A stretch of DNA of 64,000 bases, taken from positions 52,255-116,254 of the forward strand of contig JAPDPQ010000002.1 in assembly GCA_034506395.1 (NCBI GenBank), written 5' to 3'. This DNA is from Candidatus Zhuqueibacterota bacterium. Lineage in GTDB: Bacteria; Zhuqueibacterota; Zhuqueibacteria; Thermofontimicrobiales; Thermofontimicrobiaceae. A program made the translations under genes and the position numbers. Positions 5,975-48,659 of the stretch are shown here, one piece after another. The stretch's first letter is position 1; every line of letters begins with the position of its first letter. The notes beneath the pieces were generated by a model. It did not search any database and was not told the origin of the DNA. It saw nothing but the letters and a program-made list of their open reading frames with translations.

Positions 5975-6379
5975 CTGGCTTCTCCCTCCGCAGCCTCGAC
6001 TATTTGATCGTATGTTAGGCAGTTAAGCCAACCGGCAGAAACCATATTCACCGCTGGGTGATCCGCTCTCATGATCGGATCGGTCTTGATCTACCGAGAG
6101 GTGGGAGTCGTATTCGATCGAAACAACAATCATTGAAGTTTGCTGGTTTCGCCGCCGCGGAGTAGCGGATCATGCAGAGTAAATTCGGTCAGGAAGCGAG
6201 ACACGCTTGCGGGGGATGCTGCGTCAATTTTAACAGGCTGTCCGAAAACTTTCGGATGTTAGGATAAAAACCAGCAACCAAATCAATACGGCCGAACGGA
6301 GAGCGGTTGGAAAAGTAGAATCGCCCTTTGCTACAAGAATGAGATGAATCAGTGATAGTTAAATTTTGTGGGGAGCATT

Positions 6380-9037: not shown

Positions 9038-9049
9038 GGGGAGTAATTC

Positions 9050-11722: not shown

Positions 11723-11734
11723 CGAGGAGCAATC

Positions 11735-12523
11735 ATGCAAAGGTGGAAGCTTGGGCGTATTTTCGTGCTCAGCGCCATCATCATTGCATGGGGGATCAAT
11801 GATGGATTCGCGCAAGTCAAAGTTACAATCGCCGATGTTGCAGCGACGCCTAAAAGCACGGCCAGCGTGGCAATGTTGGTGAGCGATTTATCTAATTATG
11901 AGATCATTTCCTATCAATTTGAAATTTTGTATGATTCGCTGGTTGCTCGGGCGAAAGGGGTGGCAGTTGAAGGCACGATAACCGCGCCATGGGGCAGCCC
12001 CGCGGTCAATCTGGATAGCGCTGGCAGAATGCTCGTTGGCAATTTCGGGACGCGGCCGCTTTCGCCAGGCGATACACTGCTTAAACTCATCTTTGCGGTC
12101 GTCGGATTACCGGGCGATACGAGTACGATCATCCTAAAGGATTTTCAGTTCAACAATGGCAATCCCATGGCCCTATCGAAAAACGGGCGACTAAAAGTTC
12201 TATCGCCCAGCGGTGTGGCCCAGCCTTCGCCGATCGTACCGCGAAAAGCAATCTATCTCTCTAACTCGCCAGAGCCATTTTGCGACCGCACCACGATTCA
12301 AATGATTCAGCCTTCTCCAGGAGCAATCGATATTGAGATCTACAATGTACTTGGACAGCGGATCAAACGATTAGGAAACTTTGATTCAAATCGATCCTTG
12401 TTGGAGATCGACTGGGACGCGACCGACCAGCAAGGTGGACCAGTGCCGGCTGGCATCTATTTCTGTATGGTGAGACAATTCAATCGGATTCTGGCGGTTG
12501 ATCGGATGATATTCATCAAGTGA
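11735..12523 (+). CDS. Small secreted protein (262 aa) consisting of a signal peptide, a single cohesin-like domain and a T9SS CTD.
   Basis: GAGGAG lies 5 nt upstream of the ATG. The domain 'VKVTIADVAATPKSTASVAMLVSDLSNYEIISYQFEILYDSLVARAKGVAVEGTITAPWGSPAVNLDSAGRMLVGNFGTRPLSPGDTLLKLIFAVVGLPGDTSTIILKDFQFNNGNPMALSKNGRLKV' fits the cohesin beta-sandwich pattern (V.V.I..V.A..G..V.VPV….FxL.YD..VL…G….W…N…G.I..G…GxGxL..I.F.V.G..G..S.L….FN.G.P…NG.V). The CTD is 'PEPFCDRTTIQM…IEIYNVLGQRI…AGIYFCMV'. The gene is tightly coupled to both neighbours. Confidence 0.75.
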   Translation: MQRWKLGRIFVLSAIIIAWGINDGFAQVKVTIADVAATPKSTASVAMLVSDLSNYEIISYQFEILYDSLVARAKGVAVEGTITAPWGSPAVNLDSAGRMLVGNFGTRPLSPGDTLLKLIFAVVGLPGDTSTIILKDFQFNNGNPMALSKNGRLKVLSPSGVAQPSPIVPRKAIYLSNSPEPFCDRTTIQMIQPSPGAIDIEIYNVLGQRIKRLGNFDSNRSLLEIDWDATDQQGGPVPAGIYFCMVRQFNRILAVDRMIFIK

Positions 12524-12534
12524 TTGAGGAGATT

Positions 12535-14970: not shown

Positions 14971-15311
14971 CTGAAAGCTCGAAACCACAGGCGGTTGATA
15001 TTGGGCCTGATCTTCATTCCGTGGAAGCGCTCGTGAATGATATTTGGATTGCTCCATGTTATAGATCATGATGAGGCAAGAATTTTTAAATGAGGGGATG
15101 CTCAATTTTCCTTCCGCAAGTTTTGAACATGATCTACGGGAGCAGCGGCTGAGATTTAGGGGATTTTGATTTGTATTAAAATTGTAGCGTTCATTGTTGC
15201 TGCCTTCTATTATTCTACTATGATGAAATTGAGTTAAAAAAAGCTGTTCAAATTCTCTTTGGTTTCACCAGGGAGAATAAATAAATCGGTGTGAGATGGG
15301 GGAGCTCATCC

Positions 15312-17987: not shown

Positions 17988-18096
17988 CCAGATGTCGCCG
18001 GGCAAAAGAAGATATTTCCTGAATTCTATGGGAAAACACTTAAAAGTATGATATCTGGAAAAATTTTGGTTCGTAACTTAACTTGAGGATCGCATC

Positions 18097-20850
18097 ATGT
18101 ATGGCAGCAGAATTCTTATGATACTGTTATTTTGGGCTACCATAGCAGCGCCGCTATTGGCTGAAGTAACAGTGACTATTCCTGACACAACGGCGTATCC
18201 AGAAGATACTTTATTTGTTCCAATCAAATTATCCGACGTGACTGGTCTGGAAGTCTATTCCTATGAGTTTCGGATGAAATTTGATCCCAAAGTTGTTCAA
18301 TTCATCCGCGTAGACTCGACCAAAACCCTGACTGAGACGTGGGGCAAAACCTGGCTCAATACCGAATCGGTCGGGGAAATCAGGGTGGGAAATTACAACG
18401 TGACGCCCCTCCAAAATGCTGGAGTGCTGATTTATCTTGGTTTTAAGATGTTGGGCAAAATTGATGATTCGAGCCAATTTGTCGCCCAGGATTTTACCTT
18501 TAATGCGGGTCAACCAACAGTCGAACTCAAAAATGGGTCGGTGAAAATCCTGCATCCTCCTATCAGCGTTCGATTTCGGTCCAATGTGGCAGTGACCATC
18601 AAAATTCTGCTCGACAGCCATGAAAAGAAGCTGCCCTTCGATACGAGCTGGGCATATGGCTCAAGTCATACGATCGGGACAATTTCTCCGCAGTACTTCT
18701 CTTCTGATACGCGTTATAGCTTTCAAAGCTGGAGCGATGGAAAAACAATGTCTCATACCGTTAGCCCAATTTCGGACACCACTTTTACGCTGTTCATGGA
18801 TGAGGAATTCTTGCTAACGCTCCAATCGAGATATGGGACTCCGACCGGGGGAGGCTGGTACCTCCGCGGCAAAAACGCGACCTTTTCTGTCGATTCGGTG
18901 GCGCAACAAACCGATAGCACCCGCTACGTCTTTGCTCAATGGTCAGGGGTCGGAGCGAGCAGCTATAGCGGAACGCAACGCACAGTCACGATTATCATGA
19001 ACAGCCCGGTAATAGAGAGCGCCCAATGGACTCAACAGTATTATTTAGCCATTCGATCGAATATTGGAACTCCGATTGGCCAAGGATGGCATAACCAGGG
19101 CGACGCGGTTACGATATCCATCGATTCTTTGGTTACGCCCATTGCTGGCACCCGCTATATTTTCAGTTCCTGGACAGGAATCGGATCTGGCAGTTACACC
19201 GGTGCTCAGCGGAAAGTATCGGTGACCATGCTCGCACCAATCGTTCAAAAAGCCAATTGGCAAACCGAGCATTACTTGAAAATCAAATCCTCACCAGAAC
19301 AGATCGTTCAGTTCAAACAATCTGGCTGGTATGCGAAGAACAGTCTGGTATCGACCGATAAAGCGTTAGAAAGTGTAAGTTCTCCAGGAATAATTTATCG
19401 TTTCAAGCAATGGAAACTGGATCAGAAAGAGCTACCTGGGAATCCAATTCAAGTCACCATGGATACGTCGCACATAGCGGAAGCAGTCTACCAAATTGAT
19501 AGCGTTTTGGTGAATATCACCACCTCCATTGGCACGGGCAGTTTCATTACCGTGGATGGCAATCGACATCCAGTGCCATATTGGGATTGGTGGCAATTTC
19601 AGTCGAGGCATCATATCGACATCGATTCCATTCAACTGGCAGCGAATCAGAAAACGCGATACGTATTCAAATCATGGAGTGATCGAGGGGCGCGAAATCA
19701 TACTGTAGTCGCAGATACGGGGTTTCAATTAATTGCTGCTCTGGCTAGTCAGCACTTGCTCCGGATTGATACTCATCCTCCAGGGCTCATTCAATTTGCC
19801 GAAAATGGCTGGTATGATCAGGGGAGTTCGGTCAACATCCCGGCGGTTCCTTTGCAGTTCGATATCGGTCAGGAGAAGTTGAATTTTAAAGGATGGTACC
19901 TGGATCGACATTGGATCGGCGGGGAGCTCCGTCAAATTTTAATGGATCGACCCCATTCAGCCATTGCAGCTTACAAAGAGCTCCTATCAGTTAAAGGAAA
20001 AATTTTGAATCGCCGCGGTCAAATAGTGCCAAACATCAAAGTAATACTTTCTGGGGCTGCAGACGATACGGTGATCGTTGCAGATGGTGAATATGCGTTC
20101 GAAATGCTTTCTGTGGGAGTTTATCAGATTGCGCCGCAATCTGCTGGTTTTTGTTTCGAACCACCTGCGCGATCCTATCTGCCTTTATCCGAAAGCCTCT
20201 TCGAACAAAATTTTATTGCTATCGATACCTTAAAACCCCAGGTCCAGCTCATTTATCCCAATGGAGGGGAACGGCTGGTGGCAGCCTCGACTGATACCAT
20301 CAAATGGCTGGCAGCCGACAATTTTGGGATCGATTCGATCCGCATAGATTTAAGCAGCGATCATGGGCAATCCTGGTTGAATATCATCAAATTCGATAGC
20401 TCAAAATTTTCAAGCTATGCCTGGACCATTCCGAATCTTTCCAGCGATCGTTGTCTCCTTCGCATCACGGTAAAAGATTTTGACACGAATGAGGCAGAAG
20501 ACCTCAGCGATGGGATGTTTACCATCACGCCTAAATCGGCAGTGAATGATGACGGGAGCCTTGTGATACCCACAACCTTTGCGGTACACCAAAATTATCC
20601 CAATCCATTCAACAATGCAACTCAAATTCGCTTCCAACTGCCTGTTGCAGCTCAGGTTCAGATCAAAATTTTTAACACGAAGGGTCAAATGGTTGCTACC
20701 ATAGTCGATCGAAATTTTGATGCTGGGTATCATCAAATTGATTGGAATGGGAGAGATCAATTTGGTCATGAGCTGTCATCGGGTATTTATTTCTATCAGA
20801 TCCAAGCTGGGGAACAGGTTGTGATGCGCAGAATGGTATTATTACGCTGA
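18097..20850 (+). CDS. Paralog of the 12535..14970 gene. It has an N-terminal cohesin-like domain, tandem Listeria/InlB-B-type repeats, a CarboxypepD_reg-like domain, a small Ig-like beta-sandwich and a T9SS CTD.
   Basis: GAGGAT lies upstream of the ATG, and the signal peptide is 'MYGSRILMILLFWATIAAPLLAEV'. The cohesin-like segment is 'VTVTIPDTTAYPEDTLFVPIKLSDVTGLEVYSYEFRMKFDPKVVQFIRV…GVLIYLGFKMLGKIDDSSQFVAQDFTFNAGQPTVELKNGSVKI'. The repeats contain 'G.GWY..G' and 'Y.F..WS'. The CTD is 'FAVHQNYPNPFNNATQIRFQLP…IFNTKGQMV…SGIYFYQIQA'. A rho-independent terminator follows. Confidence 0.8.
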   Translation: MYGSRILMILLFWATIAAPLLAEVTVTIPDTTAYPEDTLFVPIKLSDVTGLEVYSYEFRMKFDPKVVQFIRVDSTKTLTETWGKTWLNTESVGEIRVGNYNVTPLQNAGVLIYLGFKMLGKIDDSSQFVAQDFTFNAGQPTVELKNGSVKILHPPISVRFRSNVAVTIKILLDSHEKKLPFDTSWAYGSSHTIGTISPQYFSSDTRYSFQSWSDGKTMSHTVSPISDTTFTLFMDEEFLLTLQSRYGTPTGGGWYLRGKNATFSVDSVAQQTDSTRYVFAQWSGVGASSYSGTQRTVTIIMNSPVIESAQWTQQYYLAIRSNIGTPIGQGWHNQGDAVTISIDSLVTPIAGTRYIFSSWTGIGSGSYTGAQRKVSVTMLAPIVQKANWQTEHYLKIKSSPEQIVQFKQSGWYAKNSLVSTDKALESVSSPGIIYRFKQWKLDQKELPGNPIQVTMDTSHIAEAVYQIDSVLVNITTSIGTGSFITVDGNRHPVPYWDWWQFQSRHHIDIDSIQLAANQKTRYVFKSWSDRGARNHTVVADTGFQLIAALASQHLLRIDTHPPGLIQFAENGWYDQGSSVNIPAVPLQFDIGQEKLNFKGWYLDRHWIGGELRQILMDRPHSAIAAYKELLSVKGKILNRRGQIVPNIKVILSGAADDTVIVADGEYAFEMLSVGVYQIAPQSAGFCFEPPARSYLPLSESLFEQNFIAIDTLKPQVQLIYPNGGERLVAASTDTIKWLAADNFGIDSIRIDLSSDHGQSWLNIIKFDSSKFSSYAWTIPNLSSDRCLLRITVKDFDTNEAEDLSDGMFTITPKSAVNDDGSLVIPTTFAVHQNYPNPFNNATQIRFQLPVAAQVQIKIFNTKGQMVATIVDRNFDAGYHQIDWNGRDQFGHELSSGIYFYQIQAGEQVVMRRMVLLR

Positions 20851-20936
20851 GAGATGCCCTTAATTTTTGCTGAGCAATTGAATTGCAACTTTTGATTCCT
20901 ATAGCGCAACTGCATCGATTCGAGTGAATCGGCAAA

Positions 20937-20977
20937 GAGCCGCTCTATGTAAGATATGAGCGGCTTCTTTGTTTCTA
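20937..20977 (+). terminator. Rho-independent terminator after the 18097..20850 gene.
   Basis: The stem is 'AGAGCCGCTC'…'GAGCGGCT', with a ~12-nt loop, followed by 'TCTTTGTTTCT'. Confidence 0.5.
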
Positions 20978-21276
20978 TTCACCAAATATAAAAGGGATTG
21001 AACCGCCGATTCATTAGTGGCTGCTGTACCTCATAAAAATATCAAATATGGCAATTTTCTGCTTGCCTTTTAATGAAAAAATGCTATTTTCTAAATGAAA
21101 TCACTATCGATGTTACTGCTCCGAGAAATTGTATCCTTCTTGAAATTGTTTGGACCAACTGCTGTATCATCCAGTAACTGGGGATAAAAATAATCCCATG
21201 AATCCCAAAACGAAATATGGCAGCTTTATTAATCACCCCAACGCTGCCATTCAATTTTAACTGGGAGGGCCAATCC

Positions 21277-23829
21277 ATGAAAACTATCAAACACAAGCTA
21301 ATTGGACTCGGGTTAATGATATTTGTATGCGTTCGTGCAATGGCTCAGACGGTAGAGGTATCAATCCCCGACCTGTCGGACAGCGCTGGTGCTGTGGTCA
21401 AGGTGCCAATTATGGTGAACGATGTGACTGGGTTGGGCGTGCTTTCTTATATGTGTGCCCTGACATTTGACCAGCGAGTATTAGATGCGAGAGGATATAT
21501 CATTGCTGGTACACTTTCTGACGGCTGGGCCGCGTTTTTTGCCGATAGTTTAGGGAAAGCTCGGTTGGCGGCCGCAGGAACGAACGTAGCGGTTGGCAGC
21601 GGCGTGCTGGCCTATATTCAATTCGAGGTTGTTGGTGCCCCTGGGAGCAGGACCAATCTGGTTCTGACGGATTTCGTGTTTAATGAAGGATTTCCTCAGG
21701 CAACACTTCGCAACGGTTCATTCGAAGTGAGAGCCGTGAAAAACCGTCCGCCGAAGGCCGATGCCGGGGCTGATATTCTTGGGGTTCAGGCTGCCAGTTA
21801 CGTGAAATTGGATGGTTCAAAATCATCTGATCCAGATGGCGATTCTCTGCGCTATTATTGGAGCAGCGCCAATCCTGACGTCATTATTGACACCTCGCCA
21901 GAAAATCCAGTCGCTGGTTTCCGTCCCCTGGAGATCGGTGAATACAAATTTCATTTAAAGGTAAGTGATGGTCGTGAGGAGAGCGCGCCAGATAGTGTCG
22001 TTGTCTCTGTAACGATCGAAGCGCCAGCGCCATTGGGCTATCGATTTGTGGATAACTTCGCGCAGCTCTTGGGGGCGCAGGGTGTTGTTGTGGATCCTGA
22101 AGGCAAAATATGGTCCGGCTCATATTATACAAGCCCCAGCTCTTATGTCCGGGTCTGGAATTCAGATGGAACTGTTCCCGAATGGGCGCCAGTCAAATCT
22201 GGCCGCGTCGGGAATGATGTGGTGAGCACCATGGGTAATTGCTATGGTTTAGCCATCGACAAAGAAGGGAATGTCTATTACAGCAATGCCACCGAGCATG
22301 TTGTGCTGAAGTTCGACTATCAGACTGGTGCGCCTCTGGGCGGGATTCGATTGTCCAAAGGGAGTCCCACAATGGGAGTCGACCATAACGGTTACCTTTA
22401 TGTAGGGACCGTAGTCGGCGATACCGTATGGATTTATGATAAAGATTTTCATTTGATCAATCGGGTTTATGTGGAATATATCGGCCGGGAGGTGGAGGTC
22501 GCTCCCGATGGGAGCGTCATCTATGTGGGGCAGTTCGATGGCACCGTAAGACGATTTCAGGGCAGCCCGACGACTGGCTATCACCGCATCGAAGATCTTC
22601 CTGGACCATTTACAACTGCCGATGGGCCAGGGGTGACGAGCGATATCGGATTCGATATGCATGGTCGTCTTTGGGTGACCGAAGAACATACAACCTACCC
22701 TCAGCGCGATTTCATTCACATTTACAGCCCAGATCTCAAATTTCGCGAGAGCTTTACATATTCCGATGATCATCCCTGGGATCGGCCGCGCGGGGTGGGA
22801 TTCGATCATAATTTAGGAGATTCGCTGATCTATATTGTGGATTTTGAGGCCAAAAATCCGTTCATCCAGCGCTGGGCGATCCCTGGCACCGAGCTCCCCC
22901 CAATATTTCATACCATTCGACAAGTGGCTGAGGTGGATGATAATGGATTTCCATCTTTATCGAACAAAAACGTCAAGGTTCGCGGCATCGTGACCGTGGC
23001 TGGGGAATTCGGGCCCTCTGGGCCGTCGTACCTTCAAGACGCAGCCGACAGTGCTGGCGTCGCTATCTACGATGCACGATCAATTCTGCCAGATTCTGTG
23101 AAAATAGGCGATGAAATCATGGTGGTAGGTAAAGTTGGTTTCTACAATGGGCTCACCGAAATCGATCCTGTCAAAGATTTTCGCATCCTATCGTCTGGGC
23201 ATACCATCGTACCACGAAAAATCACTTGCGCCGATTTAGCTGAACGGGTTGGCGAGCGGTTTCAATCGCAATTGGTCATTATCGAACAGGTCCATACTAA
23301 TGTGACGGTTTTTCCCAGCAACCAGAATGTCACCATTAGCGATCGGACCGGATTCGCTGTCATGAGGATCGATAAAGACACCGATATTCCTGGGGCTGAG
23401 GTTCGGGCAGACTCGTTCAGTGTGGTGGGCGTGATCACGCAATACGATCCGCAATCTCCCTACTGGGGAGGATATCAAATTATGCCGCGCTCCCGGCGCG
23501 ATTTGGCCAAAGCGACGAATATTCAAATGCTCAGCGAACAATCTGTGCCGAAGCAATTCGCTCTGTATCAAAATTATCCCAATCCATTTAATGCCCAGAC
23601 GATGATCAAATATGATCTGCCAAAAGATTGTCGCGCGACTCTGGAAATATTCAACGTACTGGGACAAAAGGTGAGAACCCTGGTTGATGGCTACCAGAAA
23701 GCCGGGACGAAAAGCGCATATTGGGACGGCCAAAATCAGAATGGTCATCGCGCCGCTGCTGGAACATACATTTATCTGCTAAGTGCTGGAGATTTTCAGC
23801 GATCGAGACGAATGATTTTGCTTCCATGA
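21277..23829 (+). CDS. T9SS cargo protein with an N-terminal cohesin-like domain, a PKD/K319-like domain, an NHL/SGL-type beta-propeller region and a T9SS CTD.
   Basis: GGGAGGG lies 7 nt upstream of the ATG at 21277, and the signal peptide is 'MKTIKHKLIGLGLMIFVCVRAMAQT'. The cohesin-like segment is 'VEVSIPDLSDSAGAVVKVPIMVNDVTGLGVLSYMCALTFDQRVLDARG…GVLAYIQFEVVGAPGSRTNLVLTDFVFNEGFPQATLRNGSFEV'. 'KADAGADILGVQAASYVKLDGSKSSDPDGDSLRYYWSS' is PKD-like. The repeated 'G.AID.EGNVYY', 'G…VGTVVGDTVWIYD', 'G.VIYVGQFDG' are propeller-like. The CTD is 'FALYQNYPNPFNAQTMIKYDLP…IFNVLGQKV…GTYIYLL'. Confidence 0.75.
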   Translation: MKTIKHKLIGLGLMIFVCVRAMAQTVEVSIPDLSDSAGAVVKVPIMVNDVTGLGVLSYMCALTFDQRVLDARGYIIAGTLSDGWAAFFADSLGKARLAAAGTNVAVGSGVLAYIQFEVVGAPGSRTNLVLTDFVFNEGFPQATLRNGSFEVRAVKNRPPKADAGADILGVQAASYVKLDGSKSSDPDGDSLRYYWSSANPDVIIDTSPENPVAGFRPLEIGEYKFHLKVSDGREESAPDSVVVSVTIEAPAPLGYRFVDNFAQLLGAQGVVVDPEGKIWSGSYYTSPSSYVRVWNSDGTVPEWAPVKSGRVGNDVVSTMGNCYGLAIDKEGNVYYSNATEHVVLKFDYQTGAPLGGIRLSKGSPTMGVDHNGYLYVGTVVGDTVWIYDKDFHLINRVYVEYIGREVEVAPDGSVIYVGQFDGTVRRFQGSPTTGYHRIEDLPGPFTTADGPGVTSDIGFDMHGRLWVTEEHTTYPQRDFIHIYSPDLKFRESFTYSDDHPWDRPRGVGFDHNLGDSLIYIVDFEAKNPFIQRWAIPGTELPPIFHTIRQVAEVDDNGFPSLSNKNVKVRGIVTVAGEFGPSGPSYLQDAADSAGVAIYDARSILPDSVKIGDEIMVVGKVGFYNGLTEIDPVKDFRILSSGHTIVPRKITCADLAERVGERFQSQLVIIEQVHTNVTVFPSNQNVTISDRTGFAVMRIDKDTDIPGAEVRADSFSVVGVITQYDPQSPYWGGYQIMPRSRRDLAKATNIQMLSEQSVPKQFALYQNYPNPFNAQTMIKYDLPKDCRATLEIFNVLGQKVRTLVDGYQKAGTKSAYWDGQNQNGHRAAAGTYIYLLSAGDFQRSRRMILLP

Positions 23830-31426: not shown

Positions 31427-31870
31427 GATTGATTTCTCCTGTTTATGATCGAAGCGATCTCTATAAAGTTATGCAATTCCGCACTCAATAACAAGCATTA
31501 ATTTTTTTCCTCAAGAAATTTGCCTTGATTTTTAGACTCTATTTATTTATTTTGGACTAAAAATCGAGCCACAAAAAATCAATCTGCGCAATTCATATCG
31601 AATTGCGCCTAAAAAGATTCATTATCAGCCAGCACAAAAGAGTCGATCAGCATTTCAGATCATTTTTATTGAATCTGATTGTGATGCTGAATTCTAAAAA
31701 ATATGTTGGAGTGGGCGGATAAGCTTCTCGTCGGTTGATTGACTTTAAAATTGATTTAGTAGGAAATTTTTGCATTCGCAGCAGTGGCATTGTTTTTTTG
31801 CTCTTGGTTTCATATCAGAAATGGGTAGATATTCGAACCGTAGTAAAACCTATAAGGGATGTGATGAGTG

Positions 31871-33256
31871 ATGGACAATGAGCAATACAAGGGCTATCGG
31901 GGACCAGCGCTGAGTACTTTGAAGAATTTTTCGGTTCAGGTATGGAGTGATGTGGAGGTAGAAACAACACGTGGGGAGTTTAAAGGAATTATTTTGCCAC
32001 GGTCCGAGACCGCTGATGATCGGCATATCGTATTGAAATTGCGCAATGGTTATAATGTTGGTTTAGCGGTTGATACAATCACTGGAATGCGACAAACCGG
32101 GTATAAAAAGGCGAACTATAAAATTCCTGAAAAACAATTTCCGTACGATCCCAAAAAACCGCGGGTAAAATTGTTTGGCACTGGGGGGACCATTGCCAGT
32201 CGGCTGGATTATCGCACTGGCGCGGTAATCCCGGCGTTTTCACCTGGTGAACTGTACGGTTCGGTGCCTGAGTTAGCGGATATTTGTAACCTCGAGACCG
32301 AAAAACTTTATGGGGTATTCAGTGAAAACATGGGGCCTGAGCAATGGATTGGGACTGCGACGGCCATTGGACGGGAAATTGAAAAAGGGGTGAGCGGCAT
32401 AGTGATTGGTCATGGGACTGATACGATGCATCACACTGCAGCGATCCTTTCATTTATGGTGCAAAACTCGCCGGTGCCAATCGTTATGGTGGGTTCGCAG
32501 CGCTCCAGCGATCGGCCTTCTTCGGATGCGGCGATCAATCTAATTAATGCGACGAAAACCGCGGCCGAAAGCGATATTGCTGAAGTGATGGTTTGCATGT
32601 TCGGGCCAACCAGTGATCAATATGATTTATTGCATCGAGGGACGCGAGTGCGTAAGATGCATTCCAGTTATAGATCCACTTTTCGCACCATCGGAGATAT
32701 TCCGCTGGCCATGGTCAGCCGTGATTGGATCATCCCATTGCGAAACGATTACAAACGCCGTCGAAACGATAGAAACGTGGTTATCAATACTGCTTTCGAA
32801 GAAATGGTCTCTATCGTCTATTATTATCCCAATATGCGGCCCGATATCATTGAATCGTTGATCGACAACAATTACAAGGGCATCATTATAGCTGGGACTG
32901 GCTTGGGGCATGTGAATAAGCCGCTCTATCCCGCTCTTAAAAAAGCCCACCAAAAGGGTATAGCCATGTTTATGACAGTTCAAACTCTTTGGGGCTACGT
33001 CCAAATGTATGTCTATGACACCGGCCGCGACATCATGGAGTTGGGGGTGATTCCCGCAGCTAATATGTTGCCCGAGGTCGCCTATGTGAAATTGGGCTGG
33101 ACATTGGGACAAACGACCGATCTGGAAAAAGTCAAGGAGATTATGCTGACCCCCATTGCAGGAGAAATTACGGAGCGCGAACCGCATAACGGCTATTTGA
33201 TTTATCAAGGCGGAATCCCTGAGGTCGAGGAGTTCATCAGCAAATATTGGAAATAG
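31871..33256 (+). CDS. Asparaginase-domain protein of the GatD type (Glu-tRNA(Gln) amidotransferase subunit D-like), which has the ~95-aa N-terminal domain absent from plain type-I asparaginases.
   Basis: The N-terminal domain 'GEFKGIILPRSETADDRHIVLKLRNGYNVGLAVDTI' matches the GatD N-domain pattern. The asparaginase core carries both catalytic threonine motifs, 'KLFGTGGTIAS' and 'IVIGHGTDTM'. The length is ~461 aa. Confidence 0.65.
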   Translation: MDNEQYKGYRGPALSTLKNFSVQVWSDVEVETTRGEFKGIILPRSETADDRHIVLKLRNGYNVGLAVDTITGMRQTGYKKANYKIPEKQFPYDPKKPRVKLFGTGGTIASRLDYRTGAVIPAFSPGELYGSVPELADICNLETEKLYGVFSENMGPEQWIGTATAIGREIEKGVSGIVIGHGTDTMHHTAAILSFMVQNSPVPIVMVGSQRSSDRPSSDAAINLINATKTAAESDIAEVMVCMFGPTSDQYDLLHRGTRVRKMHSSYRSTFRTIGDIPLAMVSRDWIIPLRNDYKRRRNDRNVVINTAFEEMVSIVYYYPNMRPDIIESLIDNNYKGIIIAGTGLGHVNKPLYPALKKAHQKGIAMFMTVQTLWGYVQMYVYDTGRDIMELGVIPAANMLPEVAYVKLGWTLGQTTDLEKVKEIMLTPIAGEITEREPHNGYLIYQGGIPEVEEFISKYWK

Positions 33257-40583: not shown

Positions 40584-41063
40584 CTAATCAGCTCGCATTG
40601 AATCAATATTCGATTTCGTTTGGATGAGTTGGCTCAGGCATCCCTCCAGGTATGCAATTACCAGAGGCAAATTATTTAACAAAAGGCGAAAGCCTTTTTG
40701 GGTCCAACCAGTATACTTTTCGCTTCGGATACATTCCCTCACATCCAACGAACCAATTTGGTTTTTCTCACTTGGTGGTATGATCCGAGCGATCAACTCA
40801 GTGGAGTTGTTTTTCGGTAGTCGACAGAGTTCTTGTTCCGCCGATGATTGTTGGATCGATCCTGCAGATCGGATCGCAACGAGCAATTGCTCGGCCAACT
40901 CATTGCTGAGCGTCACACCCTTTCGCGTATAACCTGCATATTTATCCGAAGTGACGTACTGTCGGATATTAATGTAGCTTTTGCCTTTATATTGGTTCAC
41001 TTCAAACCGCAATTCTGTTGTGCGGCTCAACGGGATTGAATTGAAATTCGTTTGTGACAGCAC
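40584..41063 (-). CDS. Hypothetical protein with two tandem PC4/YdbC-like (transcriptional coactivator p15-like, ssDNA-binding) domains.
   Basis: There is an internal duplication: 'KGKSYINIRQYVTSDKYAGYTRKGVTLSNELAEQLLVAI' aligns with 'IGSLDVRECIRSEKYTGWTQKGFRLLLNNLPLVIAYL'. The pattern (basic-G, …IR.Y…KY.G.T.KG..L) resembles PF02229-like domains. Confidence 0.4.
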   Translation of the reverse strand: MLSQTNFNSIPLSRTTELRFEVNQYKGKSYINIRQYVTSDKYAGYTRKGVTLSNELAEQLLVAIRSAGSIQQSSAEQELCRLPKNNSTELIARIIPPSEKNQIGSLDVRECIRSEKYTGWTQKGFRLLLNNLPLVIAYLEGCLSQLIQTKSNIDSMRAD

Positions 41064-42111: not shown

Positions 42112-43518
42112 ATGAAAATGAAAAAAACGTTCAAAATATTTATTTCAGTCTTCCTGGTCATCCTTCTGCTTGCTGTTTGGTACTTTGGCAGGAATTTTCT
42201 TCATATCGCTTACATTGGGGCAGGATATAAAGCAAAGCTACTCTGTTCCAGCGTGTTTGTCGCCGATCGTGATCCAGTTGATGTGTTGCGCGAAGAGCTT
42301 TCAGATCCGAGATTAAAAATCATTCAGCATCAGATTGATTTTGAGACCAAGCGAGTGATAGCCACAGCGCCACTGGGTCTGGTGAAACGAACCGCGTATT
42401 ATCGACCAGGTCTGGGCGCAACTTTGGACTTATCCCCAAAGGATTTGAGTTTGACTTTGCCTGAGGCGCAACCGCCAGAGGCCTATTGGTCCACGCATTG
42501 GCCTCAGGGAGATTTGGTAGATTTGAGCCATCTACCAAAGGAAATTGATCGAGCACTAATGGATCAGGCGATCAGTGATGCGTTCGCGGAACCTGATTCC
42601 CAGCACTTGCGTCGGACTCGGGCATTGATAGTTGTATATCAGGGGCAAATTATCGCCGAGCGGTATGCAGAGGGATTCACCCCAAGGACCCGAATGCTGG
42701 GCTGGTCCATGACCAAAAGCGTGATGAACGCATTGATCGGAATATTGGTCGGCCAGGGGAAGCTGTCCATTGAGCAGTTCGCTCTGGTGCCGGAATGGCA
42801 ATCTGCTGACGATCCCCGGCGCGCTATTCAATTAGATCATCTGCTTCACATGACCAGTGGTTTGGAGTTTGACGAACGATATAGCAGCCTCTTCTCCGAC
42901 GTGGTGATGATGTTATATCGCGAAAAGGATGTGTCGAAATTTGCCATCAATAAGCCAGTCATTCATGCACCAGGGAGCTATTGGGACTATTCCAGCGGAA
43001 CGACCAATATCCTTTCCCGCATCATTCGTCAGACCTTCGCTGGAGATGATCGGGCTTACCTGGAATTTCCAGCAAAAATGCTTTTTCATCGAATCGGGAT
43101 GTACAGTGCCCTGATCGAGCCAGATGCCGCTGGAAATCTTGTTGGGTCTTCCTACATGTATGCGACGGCTCGGGATTGGGCACGATTCGGTTTGCTCTAT
43201 CTGCAAGATGGAATTTGGGAGGGGCAGCGCATCTTACCGGAGGGCTGGGTGCAATACTCGGTGAAGCCGCTGGAATTGGCTCCGAATGGAAAGTACGGCG
43301 CGCATTGGTGGGTGGGACATCATTGTCTGCCCATTTACGACCCCACTTTAGCCGCCTCTCTTCCTCAGGATCTTTTCTCAGCCAGAGGGCATAACGATCA
43401 GTATGTTACCATCATCCCGTCGAAACAGTTGGTCATTGTGCGGCTGGGATATACTGAGCAAAATAACGTTTGGAACCAGGCGGAATTGGTAGCGCGGATT
43501 TTAAAGGCGATTCGCTAA
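42112..43518 (+). CDS. Serine hydrolase with a beta-lactamase/transpeptidase-like fold (class-C beta-lactamase/esterase/6-aminohexanoate-dimer-hydrolase family).
   Basis: It has an N-terminal membrane anchor/signal. The S-x-x-K active-site motif is present ('GWSMTKSVMNALIG'), and 'YSSGTTNIL' marks the second conserved region. The length is 468 aa. Confidence 0.8.
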   Translation: MKMKKTFKIFISVFLVILLLAVWYFGRNFLHIAYIGAGYKAKLLCSSVFVADRDPVDVLREELSDPRLKIIQHQIDFETKRVIATAPLGLVKRTAYYRPGLGATLDLSPKDLSLTLPEAQPPEAYWSTHWPQGDLVDLSHLPKEIDRALMDQAISDAFAEPDSQHLRRTRALIVVYQGQIIAERYAEGFTPRTRMLGWSMTKSVMNALIGILVGQGKLSIEQFALVPEWQSADDPRRAIQLDHLLHMTSGLEFDERYSSLFSDVVMMLYREKDVSKFAINKPVIHAPGSYWDYSSGTTNILSRIIRQTFAGDDRAYLEFPAKMLFHRIGMYSALIEPDAAGNLVGSSYMYATARDWARFGLLYLQDGIWEGQRILPEGWVQYSVKPLELAPNGKYGAHWWVGHHCLPIYDPTLAASLPQDLFSARGHNDQYVTIIPSKQLVIVRLGYTEQNNVWNQAELVARILKAIR

Positions 43519-43779
43519 ATGCTCCCCTTGCATTGTCCCTTTTCGATTGAGAGCGATTAGAGGGTCTGAATTCATGCCATATAATCAGTTTTTCTTCGGC
43601 TGCCTCATTTAAATGAAACGATCAACTTCATTTGGGAAAAAATGAGAAAACCCAAGCTCCGTCAAAGCATTTCGGAGCTCGGGCAATATGACACTCAGCT
43701 CAACTGAATTTTCTCAGAATGGTTGAGACTGAACAAGCTTTTTCACTTGAAAAATCCGTTGATTGACTATCAGACTCCG

Positions 43780-45150
43780 CTAAAACTGCTTTAACAAATT
43801 TATCATTTGTTCCAGGGTGACGTTGGTTTGTTCGCCCGAGTTCATATTTTTGAGTGAAATCAGATTGTTCTGGATCTCCTCCGGCCCTAGGACCACCACG
43901 AACGGAATACCCTTCCGATTGGCATACTTGAATTGCTTTTTTAAACCGCCAGCTTCGAAAAATATTTCAGTGTTGATGCCGGCAGCTCGTAACTGCCGGG
44001 CAATAGCCAGACTGGCCTTTTTTGTGTTCTCATCGAATATCGTTACCAGGACCTGAGTTCTGGTGCGTGACTCGGGGAACATATTCAGCTCGGTCATGAC
44101 ATCGATGATGCGCTCGATGCCAATGGTGGTTCCTGTTGCTGGGATATCGGTCCCGAGAAACATCCCAACCAACTGATCATAGCGACCGCCGCCCGTCAGA
44201 GAGCCAATGCTCGGTTGTTCTACCACAGATTCATAGATCGGACCAGTGTAATAAGTCAGTCCCCGCGCCAAATACAGATCGATGGCATAATTTTCTGATG
44301 GGATGCCTAAATCTGCTATATATCCGATCAGTTCATTAAGCTCATTGATCCCCTCCAGGCCAATAGCGGAATCTTTCAAAAATGTGGTTATATCGCTCAA
44401 TACATTTTTGGCTGGTCCTGTGATTTCTAAAATGGGCAGAATCTTATTGATGGCCGATAGGGAAATATCGCGCTCCTGCAACTCTTGCCGGACTCCATCA
44501 ATCCCGATTTTTTCCAACTTATCAATGGCGATGCAAACTTCATTACCGCGCACCGCTTCTACGCCAGCATATTCCACAATCCCGGATAATATCTTGCGAT
44601 TATTGATCCTAATTTTGAATTTGTTGAAACCCAAAGTTGTTAGGATCTCATGGATCAATGCGATGGTTTCGGCATCAGCCAACATCGAGGAGCTGCCGAC
44701 GGTATCGGCATCGCATTGATAGAACTCGCGATATCGTCCCTTTTGCGGCTTATCGCCCCGCCAAACCGGCTGCATCTGATACCGTTTGAACGGAAGGGTA
44801 ATTTCGTTCTGATACATAGCCACCACGCGACATAGCGGCACAGTTAGGTCGTAGCGCAACGCCTCTTCAACAATATCAGAAAGCCGTGAAATGGTAAATT
44901 GAGTGATCGATCGACCCACTTTCTCTATTCCTGTGCCACGTTTGAGCACCTTAAAGATCAATTGTTCACCCTCTTCACCATATTTTCCTGAAAGGACCTC
45001 CAGCGTTTCAATTGAAGGCGTTTCAAGCGGCTCATAACCATATTTTTCGAAGATGGATCGAATGGTATTCATGACTAACTGACGCCGTAGCATCTGTTCT
45101 GGCAGAAAATCCCGAGTCCCTTTTGGTAGGCTGGGTTTAATAATCTCCAT
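43780..45150 (-). CDS. hisS: Histidine--tRNA ligase.
   Basis: The class-II aaRS motifs and HisRS-specific segments are present: 'LPKGTRDFLP', 'RYDLTVPLCRVVAMY' and 'FKRYQMQPVWRGDKPQKGRYREFYQCDADTVG'. An anticodon-binding domain follows. The start is set at the internal ATG of 'MEIIKPSLPKG'. Confidence 0.9.
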   Translation of the reverse strand: MEIIKPSLPKGTRDFLPEQMLRRQLVMNTIRSIFEKYGYEPLETPSIETLEVLSGKYGEEGEQLIFKVLKRGTGIEKVGRSITQFTISRLSDIVEEALRYDLTVPLCRVVAMYQNEITLPFKRYQMQPVWRGDKPQKGRYREFYQCDADTVGSSSMLADAETIALIHEILTTLGFNKFKIRINNRKILSGIVEYAGVEAVRGNEVCIAIDKLEKIGIDGVRQELQERDISLSAINKILPILEITGPAKNVLSDITTFLKDSAIGLEGINELNELIGYIADLGIPSENYAIDLYLARGLTYYTGPIYESVVEQPSIGSLTGGGRYDQLVGMFLGTDIPATGTTIGIERIIDVMTELNMFPESRTRTQVLVTIFDENTKKASLAIARQLRAAGINTEIFFEAGGLKKQFKYANRKGIPFVVVLGPEEIQNNLISLKNMNSGEQTNVTLEQMINLLKQF

Positions 45151-45585
45151 TACTCGTCGCTCCACATCTAAGAAAATAAGATTCATCCGATGACGATTGC
45201 ATTGCGCCTATTCAGTCCAAAAGCTTTGCTGATTCTTTCACGGAGATTCACGGATAATTGAAACTTCAGAAAAATGAAAATCAAAATAGCCCTGTTAATA
45301 GGGCCAAAGCATTCCAGAATCTACCACCTAATAAATTCCAAAAGTTGGTATTGATCGATGCTTTAGACAAAGATACGCATGTCGATCGTCAGCAGACTTC
45401 CAATTTCAAATTGGCCGAAATATAAGTATTATTGCAAAAGAAGGCAAGCAATTTTTTTGTTAAAACCTATAATCATGCTTGTGTTCGATCCAACTGAATT
45501 TTAGGGAACGGTATGCACCCGATTCAGATAAGCTTAATGATGCAGAATCTTACCGAAAGACTTGGCTTTTTTCCCAAAAAAATGA

Positions 45586-45614
45586 TTGACTCTTGCGGGC
45601 GAAATAAGTAAATT
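45586..45614 (+). promoter_or_regulatory. Putative sigma70-type promoter for the HAL-like gene.
   Basis: TTGACT, then a 17-nt spacer, then TAAATT, located ~50 nt upstream of the GGAGG RBS and the ATG at 45667. Confidence 0.3.
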
Positions 45615-45666
45615 GAGCGATAAAAATAAGAGATGGAACAGCTAAAATTTTAATATTGGAGGAGCA

Positions 45667-47196
45667 ATGGCGATTGAGGTCACAGGAAAAGATCTGACGA
45701 TTGAGGATGTTTATCGCGTGGCTTATCAGCAGGAACAAGTGAAGCTCCATCCGGGCGCACTGGAGCGGATTCAGCGCTGCCGGGGCTTTATTGAAAAAAA
45801 AATTACGGATGGGGAGATCATGTATGGAGTGAATACTGGGATTGGCGAGCTGTGCAATGTCATTTTGAATGAGGAACAGATTCAGCAATTTCAAAAATAT
45901 TTGATCTACAATCATTCGGCTGGAATTGGGGAGCCGGTTCCGATCCCTGAGGTGCGTGCAGCGATGCTGAGCCGCATCAATGTCCATGCAAAAGGATTTT
46001 CCGGTTGTCGTCCTGAGATCACTTTGACTTACGTTGAAATGTTGAATAAAGGAGTGACCCCAGTGGTTTGTCAAAAAGGGAGTGTTGGGGCATGCGGAGA
46101 TCTTTCGCCGATGAGCCAGATGGCGTTGCTGCTCATGGGAGAAGGGGAGGCTTTCTATCAAGGGGAGCGCTTGCCAGGGGGTGTTGCGATGGAGCGCGCC
46201 GGAATTCCAATCCCCGGTTTAAAGGCCCGAGATGGTTTAGCAGCAATTAATGGGAGCAATTTGATCACTGGCATGGGCTGTTTGCAGATTTACGAGGCGG
46301 AGCGGCTCTTGAAGCAAGCAGAAATCGCCGCAGCCATGACGCTGGAAGCCCTTTTGGCGAATATGAAGCCGTACGATCCGCGCTTGCATCGGCTCCGAGG
46401 ATTTCCTGGCGCAATTACATCCGCCGAAAATCTTCAGAAGATCATCGCTGGATCTGATCTCTTAACGGGAAAAATGAAAGTGAAAGTGCAGGATGCGTAT
46501 AGCATGAGGTCGACGCCCCAGGTGATCGGTGCAGCGCGGGATCAGTTGCGCTGGACTCGCCAGCAGTTTGAAATCGAACTCAATGGCGTAGCCGATAATC
46601 CGATCTTCCTGCCCAATGATGGAATCGTGTTAACTGGAGCCAATTTTCAGGGCTCGCCGATAAGTGTGCCGCTGGATATGCTCGGGGCTTGTATTACCAT
46701 GGTCTGTGTCATTTCCGAACGTCGGCTGAACCGGTTACTCCACCCAGCGCTTAGCGTTGGATTGCCCGCGTTCCTCACTAAAGGCGCAGGGATGTTTTCG
46801 GGACACATGCTGAGCCAGTATACTGCAGATATGCTGATCGTCGAGCAGCGCATCCTCTCCATGCCCGCCTCGATCCAATCAATTCCGGCGGCTGCAGATC
46901 AGGAGGATTTCGTCAGCATGGGGATGAATACGGCGCTAAAGACCAAACAGATTATCGAAAATGCCTATGGCATTTTGGGTATTGAGTTCATTGCCGCGGC
47001 GCAGGCGCTGGATTTCAGGGATTTTCAACCAGGCAAGGGGACGCGGGCGGCTCACGCTGCGGTCCGAAAAATTGTCGACCATCTCGACGAGGACCGGCCC
47101 CTGTATCCTGATCACAATAATATGATGCAAGCTGTGAAACAGCGAAAAATTCTCGAAGCTGTCGAAGCTGAGATCGGCGAGCTGAAAACGTATTGA
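45667..47196 (+). CDS. hutH: Aromatic amino-acid ammonia-lyase family protein (MIO-dependent), histidine ammonia-lyase-like.
   Basis: GGAGG lies 6 nt upstream. The sequence aligns along its full length with HAL ('YGVNTGIGEL', 'GSVGACGDLSPMSQMALLLMGEGEA', 'QDAYSMR'). The MIO-forming tripeptide reads Ala-Cys-Gly here rather than the usual Ala-Ser-Gly. Confidence 0.8.
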   Translation: MAIEVTGKDLTIEDVYRVAYQQEQVKLHPGALERIQRCRGFIEKKITDGEIMYGVNTGIGELCNVILNEEQIQQFQKYLIYNHSAGIGEPVPIPEVRAAMLSRINVHAKGFSGCRPEITLTYVEMLNKGVTPVVCQKGSVGACGDLSPMSQMALLLMGEGEAFYQGERLPGGVAMERAGIPIPGLKARDGLAAINGSNLITGMGCLQIYEAERLLKQAEIAAAMTLEALLANMKPYDPRLHRLRGFPGAITSAENLQKIIAGSDLLTGKMKVKVQDAYSMRSTPQVIGAARDQLRWTRQQFEIELNGVADNPIFLPNDGIVLTGANFQGSPISVPLDMLGACITMVCVISERRLNRLLHPALSVGLPAFLTKGAGMFSGHMLSQYTADMLIVEQRILSMPASIQSIPAAADQEDFVSMGMNTALKTKQIIENAYGILGIEFIAAAQALDFRDFQPGKGTRAAHAAVRKIVDHLDEDRPLYPDHNNMMQAVKQRKILEAVEAEIGELKTY

Positions 47197-47224
47197 TCGA
47201 TTTATTACTCCAGCGGATGATAGG

Positions 47225-47263
47225 ACAGCCGCGGATGAGTGGATCTGCGGCTGTTTTGTTTTC
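47225..47263 (+). terminator. Rho-independent terminator after the HAL-like gene.
   Basis: 'ACAGCCGC' – loop 'GGATGAGTGGATCT' – 'GCGGCTGT', followed by 'TTTGTTTTC'. Confidence 0.55.
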
Positions 47264-47377
47264 TGTAGGGGATGTTAGGCGTGGATCGAGTGAGATCGAA
47301 AATGATTGAAATTTAGCCAAAAAGGCAAATCCACGTTCGGGAAAATTGGTCTCGTCCCTCGCGCTCTGCATGATCCT

Positions 47378-47716
47378 TCATTTCTGATCGATATCAGACC
47401 AATTAAACGGCATTATGTTAACCTCAATCTTGAGTTTCTTCTCAACCATTGCTTTCAGTTGATCTGGTCTCTGGATCAGCAAAATTTTGGTCGCTTTAGA
47501 TTGCTGTTTGATCCATCGTTCGATTCGCAGGACAACCCCAATTGAATCGTCCAAATGCCAACATTGAGCGATTCGTATCGGTCTAAAACTTCGCGTATAG
47601 CTGGATTTGGCAGTCCCATTGCGATGTTCGGCATATCGCCGGGCCAAATTTTTAGTATAGCCAGTATAATAGCTGCCATTATCGCATTCCAAAACATAGA
47701 GGAAGTACCCAGGCAT
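47378..47716 (-). CDS. GIY-YIG nuclease-domain protein (UPF0213/YhbQ-like).
   Basis: The GIY-YIG motif is present ('GYFLYVLECDNGSYYTGYTKNLARRYAEHRNG…'). The internal ATG at 47716 is taken as the start. Confidence 0.7.
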   Translation of the reverse strand: MPGYFLYVLECDNGSYYTGYTKNLARRYAEHRNGTAKSSYTRSFRPIRIAQCWHLDDSIGVVLRIERWIKQQSKATKILLIQRPDQLKAMVEKKLKIEVNIMPFNWSDIDQK

Positions 47717-47729
47717 GGTCAGATTCGAA

Positions 47730-48659
47730 TCATTTTTTGTCGAAGTAATGGTTCCCATAAGGATTATAAATTGCCTTCAAATGTTGCGGTAAGACACTCA
47801 CTTCAAAACGGGACCCAAAGTACATTTCGCCATCTAAGTGAGCTGGCACTTCGTGATCAAATTCGAATACAATTCGATTCGTGGAAAAGTAATTGACCAC
47901 AGCATCCTCGGTATGCACTTTTTTGATCACCCGCAGTAGCTCCTTGATTCGCCCCGGCAATGAGAGCTCGTTAATCATGCAGACATCAAGCAAGCCGTCG
48001 TTTGCAATTGCGTTTGGTGTCAGATAAAAGCCACCCGCTAATCTGCGACCATTCGCTATGGTGTTTAAAAACGATTTAGTATGGCGCATTTGGTCGAAAT
48101 AGTTGACTTGCATGTCGTGTTCCTTGTAGGTGACCAGCGTTTTTAAAATATGTTTCCAGTATTTAACCTTGCTGCCACCTTTGACCGCACGACTATTTTC
48201 TGCCTCATAATTTTCGAACGCTACCTGCGCATCGAAACCCAGACCCATTCCGTTGATAAAATAGCGATCATTACATTTGCCGACGTCCATTTGCACGGTG
48301 TGCTCTTCAAAAAATATTTCCCAGTCATGATCAGCAAAATGCTCGGAGAAGCCAAGGATAGTGATAAAATCATTGCCGGTTCCGGCAGAGACCGCTCCAA
48401 AGGTGATGTGCGGTTGGTCGACCAAAGCTTGGACGATTTCGTTGAAGGTCCCATCACCACCTACTCCGATGATATGGGTAAATCCCTCCCGGGCAAATTG
48501 ATCGGCAAGCTGTGTGGCATGACCGCGGCGTTCGGTAAATAAGATCTCAGCAGAAAGTTGATATTTTTCGATCATCGCCTTGACGGTATTTTTATAGCTC
48601 GCCGCCAAGCCATTACCAGCAATTGGATTAATGATAAAAAGCCATTTCTTTTCAGACAT
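47730..48659 (-). CDS. Lipid kinase of the diacylglycerol-kinase catalytic-domain family (YegS/BmrU-like).
   Basis: 'WLFIINPIAGNG' and the 'GGDGT' motif ('IIGVGGDGTFNEIVQAL') are present. The length is ~310 aa. Confidence 0.75.
   Translation of the reverse strand: MSEKKWLFIINPIAGNGLAASYKNTVKAMIEKYQLSAEILFTERRGHATQLADQFAREGFTHIIGVGGDGTFNEIVQALVDQPHITFGAVSAGTGNDFITILGFSEHFADHDWEIFFEEHTVQMDVGKCNDRYFINGMGLGFDAQVAFENYEAENSRAVKGGSKVKYWKHILKTLVTYKEHDMQVNYFDQMRHTKSFLNTIANGRRLAGGFYLTPNAIANDGLLDVCMINELSLPGRIKELLRVIKKVHTEDAVVNYFSTNRIVFEFDHEVPAHLDGEMYFGSRFEVSVLPQHLKAIYNPYGNHYFDKK

Follow-up and report, generated by a model that had tools for sequence, protein, structure and literature searches.

The gene and its family

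The stretch of DNA analysed here as a whole (the window, 64 kb) carries a gene of the histidine ammonia-lyase (HAL) family, preceded by a Shine-Dalgarno-like motif and divergent from a histidyl-tRNA synthetase gene (Table 1). An initial annotation had placed its product in the HAL/PAL family, and this was borne out by the PF00221 profile, of which the protein covered positions 1-466 of 466 with 552 bits. The reading frame is unambiguous, as had been claimed, the ORF being intact over its 509 aa with gca tgc gga as the codons of the triad. Among the NCBIfam models, the protein passed the cut-off of the HAL subfamily NF006871 (548.4 against 524) and missed that of the hutH equivalog TIGR01225 (519.8 against 539.15); five other members of its clade also fell below the latter, with 505.9-527.9. 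Scores with the TAL, PAL and aminomutase models were far under the cut-offs: 379 against 501 for TIGR03832, 360 against 800 for TIGR04475, 336 against 700 for the FlxA TAL model and 203 against 519 for TIGR01226. With such scores, the choice between lyase and aminomutase is no longer as open as it had been said to be. The protein also had no match among the NCBIfam families of trimethylammonia-lyases that work without the methylidene-imidazolone (MIO) group.

Table 1. Position of the HAL-family gene, of its key codons and of flanking features in the window
Feature	Position	Strand	Basis
hisS (histidyl-tRNA synthetase), divergent neighbour, context only	43780..45186	-	PF13393 + PF03129
Shine-Dalgarno-like GGAGGAG	45658..45664	+	2 nt 5' of ATG; read off sequence
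HAL-family (PF00221) gene, 509 aa, 'Cys-type' clade member	45667..47196	+	PF00221 full length; AF2 fold match
Y53 codon, catalytic base of inner loop (P. putida Y53)	45823..45825	+	Conservation counts
N82-H83 codons, substrate-selectivity position (HAL Ser-His; here Asn-His)	45910..45915	+	Conservation counts
GCA TGC GGA = A142-C143-G144, presumed MIO-forming triad	46090..46098	+	Aligned to P. putida HAL A142-S143-G144
E413 codon (P. putida E414, imidazole binding), motif AAADQEDFVSM	46903..46905	+	Invariant in clade; alignment to 1gkm

The loop region of the ORF at 45667-47196 reads KGSVGACGDLSPMSQ, with the core GSVG-A142-C143-G144-DL followed by SPMSQ. The triad itself had been recognised correctly, at coordinates one base off (about 46089-46097); the codon of C143, TGC, lies at 46093-46095. 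In the HMMER alignment, C143 fell on S143 of Pseudomonas putida HAL (GSVGASGDL), ungapped across residues 23-230, which makes this loop a homologue of the MIO-forming one. Thus the proposal that a Cys takes the place of the MIO-precursor Ser was upheld, and the reservation that the loop might be a non-homologous one no longer applies. A motif that demands Ser does not match this protein to the letter, the central residue being Cys, while G141, A142, G144 and D145 are present.

Structural comparison gave the same family assignment: the AF2 model (pLDDT 80, pTM 0.85) found its best fold match in HALs, with Foldseek TM values of 0.85-0.89 to solved HAL structures. Confidence fell under pLDDT 50 at the active-site loops, so that the model is uninformative on geometry around C143. 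P. putida HutH (1b8f/1gkm; TIGR01225) shares with the window protein the fold (TM 0.88), the catalytic and substrate residues and the MIO loop bar one residue, in a colinear alignment with small gaps only after residue 230. The window protein differs from canonical HutH by Cys for Ser, Asn-His for Ser-His, a sub-equivalog score and second-shell residues of its own. Thermoplasma acidophilum HAL (7tqr) was the best match in the PDB both by sequence (E 8e-98) and by structure; its triad is the standard one in processed form (given as X in the PDB sequence), its dipeptide is Ser-His, and the Foldseek alignment shows about 33% identity.

Recurrence of the cysteine codon

A protein identical to that of the window (P0001, 'MAG: candidate division KSB1 bacterium') was recorded on four contigs. 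The DNA of the triad was identical in two separate NCBI MAG assemblies, GCA_034506055.1 and GCA_034505535.1, which closes the doubt about the base calls raised in the initial annotation. In a relative 88% identical to the window protein (locus L007), the triad reads GCT TGT GGC: all three codons are synonymous, and flanking codons are changed too. Of the 120 database proteins nearest to that of the window (at least 80% identity), 113 carried Ala-Cys-Gly (ACG) and seven Ala-Ser-Gly (ASG). Similarly, a genome scan returned at least 596 related loci, and in the best 80, which were analysed (69-88% identity), ACG was found in 67 and ASG in 13. Cys was encoded by TGC (52 loci) or TGT (15 loci), and Ser by AGC (8), AGT (4) or TCC (1). 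The Ser codons AGC and AGT, used in 12 of the 13 Ser cases, lie one base from TGC and TGT.

Judged from these sequences, the recurrence of Cys across homologues and loci is far beyond chance. Sequencing error was ruled out by the identical DNA in separate assemblies, by Cys in most relatives and by the use of two codons for it. That the Cys codon results from some other fault of sequencing or assembly, or that the gene is a decaying pseudogene, is a reading to which we attach practically no probability: an artefact would have to appear in independent assemblies, in 67 of 80 loci and in 113 of 120 proteins through both TGC and TGT, and decay of the gene is contradicted by an intact, full-length ORF and by purifying selection that is very strong, columns averaging 87% identity in an alignment of 40 sequences.

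Serine and cysteine alternate within the clade

The clade is tight, with 70-88% identity across more than 10 phyla. The MAG labels of the best 80 loci comprised Cloacimonadota, Aminicenantes, Ignavibacteria, Elusimicrobia, Acidobacteriota, Anaerolineae/Chloroflexi, WOR-3, Eisenbacteria, Myxococcota, Gemmatimonadales, Bacteroidota, Vulcanimicrobiota and others. In a library of representatives at 50% identity, the next full-length relatives were 55%, then 48-50% and then about 41-44% identical to the window protein, the last range being that of typical full-length HALs.

We placed 327 sequences on an NJ tree and reconstructed the Ser and Cys states by Fitch parsimony. The clade of the window protein comprised about 202 sequences on this tree, 181 with ACG and 21 with ASG; of the 200 members used for conservation counts, 180 had Cys and 20 Ser. 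Parsimony placed Cys at the clade root and gave about 15 changes, a rough count, with 16 separate Ser groups. One Ser protein (L057) was 95% identical to a Cys protein (L051), indicating a recent switch, and the Ser variants retained all clade-signature residues. As a qualitative result, many independent Ser/Cys switches appear robust on this tree, given that a Cys protein is a near-equal or closer neighbour of most of the Ser proteins. Cys is the majority state and, by this reconstruction, the ancestral one. The clade most likely represents a large, little-studied and highly conserved distinct subfamily, carried mostly by anaerobic uncultured bacteria.

The triad was also tallied in the 150 top-ranking members of the 50%-identity library: ASG was present in 120, SSG in 8, ACG in 7 and TSG in 1, and the other 14 had none that was recognised by regular expression. 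A distant ACG representative (P0221) passed the hutH equivalog cut-off with 650 bits; its lineage includes a protein annotated as Silvanigrellales MAG, and ACG was present in 57 of 120 of its relatives and ASG in 63 of 120. This Silvanigrellales-type hutH lineage resembles the window protein in having a natural Ala-Cys-Gly at the same position amid ASG relatives. It differs in that it is 37-38% identical to the window protein, lies above the hutH equivalog cut-off and has a Cys of independent origin. Since ACG thus occurs in a second lineage, within canonical hutH, natural Cys has arisen at least twice.

By these counts, natural Cys at the MIO Ser position is common in metagenomic sequence space. 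Natural A-C-G had been called rare at first, which holds for characterised enzymes and not overall, ACG being the majority in a clade of which at least 200 members were sampled and present in nearly half of the second lineage. In the openly readable reviews and primary papers, the MIO precursor is written X-Ser-Gly and its middle Ser is taken to be universal, and no description of Ala-Cys-Gly paired with a lyase was found in the openly searchable literature.

Active-site residues and the second shell

Residues Y53, H83, N195, Q275, Y278, R281, N311, F327, M381 and E413 were invariant in 200 of 200 clade members; their equivalents in P. putida HAL are, in this order, Y53, H83, N195, Q277, Y280, R283, N313, F329, M382 and E414. 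Y53 was also found in 119 of 120 outgroup sequences. An alignment at the selectivity positions, proposed earlier as a check on the substrate, thus put H83, M381 and E413 on the three corresponding P. putida residues, with Asn-His as the dipeptide. G141, A142, G144, D145 and F327, all required for cyclisation, were 100% conserved in the clade. In P. putida HAL, it is G144, D145 and F329 (here F327) that drive this step.

The conservation of this loop bears on the possibility that Cys143 stays unconverted, the enzyme being either MIO-less and acting on a good leaving group in the manner of ergothionase or histidine-betaine lyases, or using the thiol itself. MIO-less PF00221 members do exist that are HAL-like in other residues, and some representatives have the loop GSVGY--L. 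The known MIO-less trimethylammonia-lyases (ergothionase, 6s7j; Shewanella histidine-betaine lyases) share the HAL fold and the His-type binding residues with the window protein; however, they lack the whole triad and depend on trimethylammonium as the leaving group, whereas the window protein keeps the cyclisation apparatus (GSVGACGDL), with G141-A142-x-G144-D145 and F327 invariant. Since the known MIO-less lyases lost the loop, such a mechanism is unlikely here. Moreover, the frequent and neutral Cys-to-Ser swaps are hard to square with a thiol-specific role, the hutU genes adjoining some orthologues (see below) are urocanate and not thiourocanate hydratases, and the NCBIfam search gave no match to families of this kind. 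Taken together, we consider an unconverted Cys143 very improbable.

The selectivity dipeptides of the family are Ser-His in HAL, His-Leu in TAL and Phe-Leu in PAL, and the Ser-His dipeptide has been described as the HAL 'substrate switch' (PMC11432326). Neither the TAL nor the PAL dipeptide is present in the window protein, which has Asn-His instead. Throughout the clade the His is kept and the Ser replaced by Asn: N82 was found in 200 of 200 members, against Ser in 115 of 120 (96%) other HALs. Further residues fixed in the clade, each given with the residue prevailing in other HALs, are C135 (P, 87%), M149 (L, 93%), Q151 (H, 82%), S282 (C, 93%), A325 (G, 93%), Q328 (H, 95%), D388 (A, 88%) and F415 (H, 66%). 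Several of these substitutions adjoin active-site residues, and the clade has a second-shell signature of its own.

Genomic context in the window and at orthologous loci

The window gene is surrounded by beta-lactamase-like, hisS, GIY-YIG, DAGK/YegS-like and glycogen-synthase-like genes, followed by ccm genes, a setting uninformative on function. The earlier statement that neither hutU nor hutI is adjacent was confirmed and extended: urocanase tblastn and Pfam scans of 31 ORFs (HAL ORF included) revealed no other hut gene in the 64-kb window. The divergent pairing with hisS, also pointed out earlier, is real as an adjacency and is not a feature of the family; among the 80 loci it was kept only in the close relative L007, with one independent case on the same strand (L074). 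An Rfam search over 43500-47800 gave no match at E <= 1, hence no T-box or riboswitch near hisS/HAL, and a promoter and terminator scan at hisS/HAL performed no better than on shuffles. Given these results and the restriction of the adjacency to two loci, a regulatory link to hisS was rejected.

All-vs-all clustering of the ORFs of the 80 loci showed no neighbour common to more than seven of them, shadow ORFs inside the HAL gene excepted. When the 135 immediate neighbours were sorted by Pfam family, urocanase was found six times and a second PF00221 gene five times, the rest being noise. A conserved operon was rejected on the basis of the clustering and this tally. The only recurrent functional neighbour was hutU, present at 6 of 80 loci from Elusimicrobia, Anaerolineales/Chloroflexi and Myxococcota, that is, three or four phyla. 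At an Elusimicrobia locus (L022; ACG, 75% identical), the genes are in the order HAL-hutU-DUF520-hutI. The start of this hutU (TIGR01228, 961 bits) overlaps the HAL stop, its hutI exceeds the cut-off of TIGR01224 (394 against 298), and no other hutH is visible within the locus of about 21.5 kb. At an Anaerolineales locus (L067, ACG), a GntR/UTRA regulator is followed by HAL and then hutU; the best match of the regulator was HutC, at a score under the HutC cut-off. The hutU genes of both loci fell under the thiourocanate-hydratase cut-offs.

The initial annotation had left the substrate open. This no longer fits the data, with H83, M381, E413 and the catalytic residues invariant and with orthologues in hutH-hutU(-hutI) operons that contain genuine urocanate hydratase. 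L-histidine is the likely substrate because hutU recurs beside orthologues, as in the gene order of L022, and we regard the substrate question as largely settled by this context.

A different arrangement was observed at five Cloacimonadota loci, where a canonical hutH (ASG; TIGR01225, 714 bits) lies immediately downstream in tandem. This tandem fits sub- or neo-functionalisation as well as redundancy. Its further neighbours (TPR, DUF5683 and T9SS-tail proteins) are uninformative. Another locus, L001, has a further PF00221 gene at a distance of 7.5 kb.

Such arrangements lend some weight to the view that the gene is a neo-functionalised paralogue, still a Cys-matured MIO enzyme, with another substrate (a modified histidine, for instance N-methyl- or thio-histidine) or with a 2,3-aminomutase reaction. 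The genuine hutH that follows in tandem in Cloacimonadota and the second PF00221 gene in L001 point in this direction, as do the position of the whole clade under the hutH equivalog cut-off, the clade-fixed substitutions close to substrate-contact residues (N82 beside H83, Q328 beside F327, F415 two residues after E413) and an unusual conservation across phyla. However, the only recurrent functional neighbour is a genuine urocanate-type hutU, and L022 combines hutH, hutU and hutI with no second hutH in its roughly 21.5 kb. In addition, the His-binding residues are all invariant, and genes for accessory functions (methyltransferases or NRPS/PKS, for instance) do not recur in the vicinity. On balance, a changed substrate or reaction seems unlikely to us.

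A model for MIO formation from Ala-Cys-Gly

The gene thus probably encodes a functional MIO-dependent HAL, converting L-histidine to trans-urocanate and NH3, with its MIO made from Ala-Cys-Gly. From the sequence comparisons we infer both MIO formation from Cys with loss of H2S and turnover of histidine by the window protein. A142-C143-G144 would cyclise autocatalytically, the amide N of G144 attacking the A142 carbonyl with loss of water. The side chain of Cys143 would then be eliminated as H2S, in place of the water lost from Ser, and the methylidene-imidazolone so formed would be the same, chemically, as the product of Ala-Ser-Gly. Catalysis would then follow the scheme of P. putida HAL: Y53 would act as the base, H83, M381 and E413 would hold the imidazole, and N195, Q275, R281 and N311 the carboxylate.

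Ser and Cys are unlike as nucleophiles, and beta-elimination turns both into the same dehydroalanine. Repeated single-nucleotide swaps between Ser and Cys without compensation would therefore be expected if both mature to the same product. Work by Langer et al. in 1994 reportedly found P. putida HAL S143C, an engineered Ala-Cys-Gly enzyme, to be active, which would imply formation of dehydroalanine and MIO via loss of H2S, and S143A to be inactive. The Ser/Cys interchange seen in the clade agrees with this reported activity. S143C is a laboratory point mutant, whereas Cys in the present clade appears to be naturally selected and the ancestral state of the whole group.

Several observations sit uneasily with the HAL assignment, namely the 505-528 bits of the clade on the hutH equivalog model, the fixed second-shell differences, the Cloacimonadota tandem and a window that has no other hut genes.

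Significance

The window gene most likely represents a natural, previously undescribed form of a known enzyme, and no new type of system. It should cause only mild surprise to MIO enzymologists, because the S143C precedent predicts the use of Cys, undocumented as this use is in nature. For annotation, motif rules that demand Ser will mis-score such enzymes, and the clade already lies under the hutH equivalog threshold. For engineering, its members offer natural scaffolds in which to ask if a Cys precursor alters the rate or completeness of maturation, a point relevant to PAL/HAL biocatalysts and therapeutics.

A bolder proposal is that Ala-Cys-Gly is an ancient and selected route to MIO via H2S, marking a horizontally spreading HAL subfamily of anaerobes whose function differs from that of HutH, for instance in the range of substrates, the kinetics of maturation or the tolerance of oxygen or sulfide. 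If true, it would account for the Cloacimonadota tandem with hutH and for the extreme sequence conservation; we hold it to be speculative, with a modest chance of being correct. Independently of this proposal, the presence of Cys in a large clade and in an independent lineage, toggling with Ser, repeats on an evolutionary scale the S143C experiment of 1994. The natural use of Cys and its free toggling with Ser would therefore imply that MIO biogenesis via loss of H2S takes place in nature.

Cysteines and the MIO triad within and outside the clade

The HAL homolog of the window (triad A142-C143-G144) belongs to a Cys-type subfamily, hereafter the clade, in which Cys205 goes together with C143: it was found in 62% of ACG members versus 5% of ASG members, the latter carrying mostly Ala (Fisher p 6e-7, uncorrected for phylogeny). 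This association may reflect shared ancestry and not coupling. Cysteines are also gained in the clade at positions 114, 135 and 143, while the one present at position 282 in 93% of other HALs is lost (S282). Judged from the alignment, the cysteines around the MIO loop are redistributed, in a region where the AF2 model is unreliable.

Ala-Cys-Gly was also observed in an independent, second lineage of canonical hutH (database homologues P0221 and P0271-P0389), in 57 of its 120 members. This lineage takes in one protein annotated as a Silvanigrellales MAG, and its cultured Fluviispira proteins (P0337 and P0342) carry ASG. Further HAL-like representatives, P0199 and P0200 among them, show the loop GSVGY--L, with 'Y--' in the triad column and hence without the triad; they are probably MIO-less trimethylammonia-lyases.

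Paralogues alongside the clade gene

At five Cloacimonadota loci (L009, L011, L012, L014 and L018) a canonical hutH lies 13-69 bp after the clade gene. The first gene of the pair carries ACG or ASG and the second, matched by the hutH equivalog model TIGR01225 at 714 bits, ASG. The two paralogues are only ~42% identical, and their tandem arrangement is conserved. In locus L001, a second PF00221 gene was found on the opposite strand, 7.5 kb downstream.

Features located in the window and at related loci
Feature	Location	Strand	Remark
Cloacimonadota tandem (example)	L012:4746-6272, then L012:6342-7862
Second PF00221 gene, 508 aa	L001:17090-17527	(-)	same contig as homologue P0067
Codon of C205	window 46279-46281
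Run of six large ORFs	window 6368-23829	(+)
262-aa ORF	window 11735-12523		no Pfam match
GatD-domain asparaginase-family protein, 462 aa	window 31868-33256	(+)	domain match
PC4-domain protein, 159 aa	window 40584-41063	(-)	domain match

Other genes of the window

Six successive large ORFs of 816-917 aa each lie on the same strand, interrupted solely by the 262-aa ORF. The first, the sole one scanned, has FG-GAP repeats together with a dockerin-like segment, and its tail is FlgD_ig/T9SS-like. Upstream of the run lie a gene for a Big_1/invasin-like protein of 1413 aa and one for a B12-binding radical-SAM enzyme. The asparaginase-family protein of this bacterial MAG has the N-terminal domain of GatD, which is subunit D of the archaeal-type Glu-tRNA(Gln) amidotransferase. 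The gene for a protein with a PC4 ssDNA-binding domain, which is like that of the eukaryotic transcriptional coactivator p15, adjoins Lhr helicase, PHP and metallophosphoesterase genes.

Conservation of the HAL gene relative to its syntenic neighbours

The HAL gene is conserved far above its syntenic neighbours. Between the window and related locus L007, identity was 88% for HAL, 76% for hisS, 70% for DAGK, 52% for glgA and 50% for GIY-YIG; with the Bacteroidota locus L074, it was 71% for HAL and 39% for hisS. Among the best 80 of at least 596 related loci, clade HAL identity amounts to 69-88% over more than 10 phyla, a pattern suggestive of horizontal spread, of constraint that is unusually strong, or of the two together.
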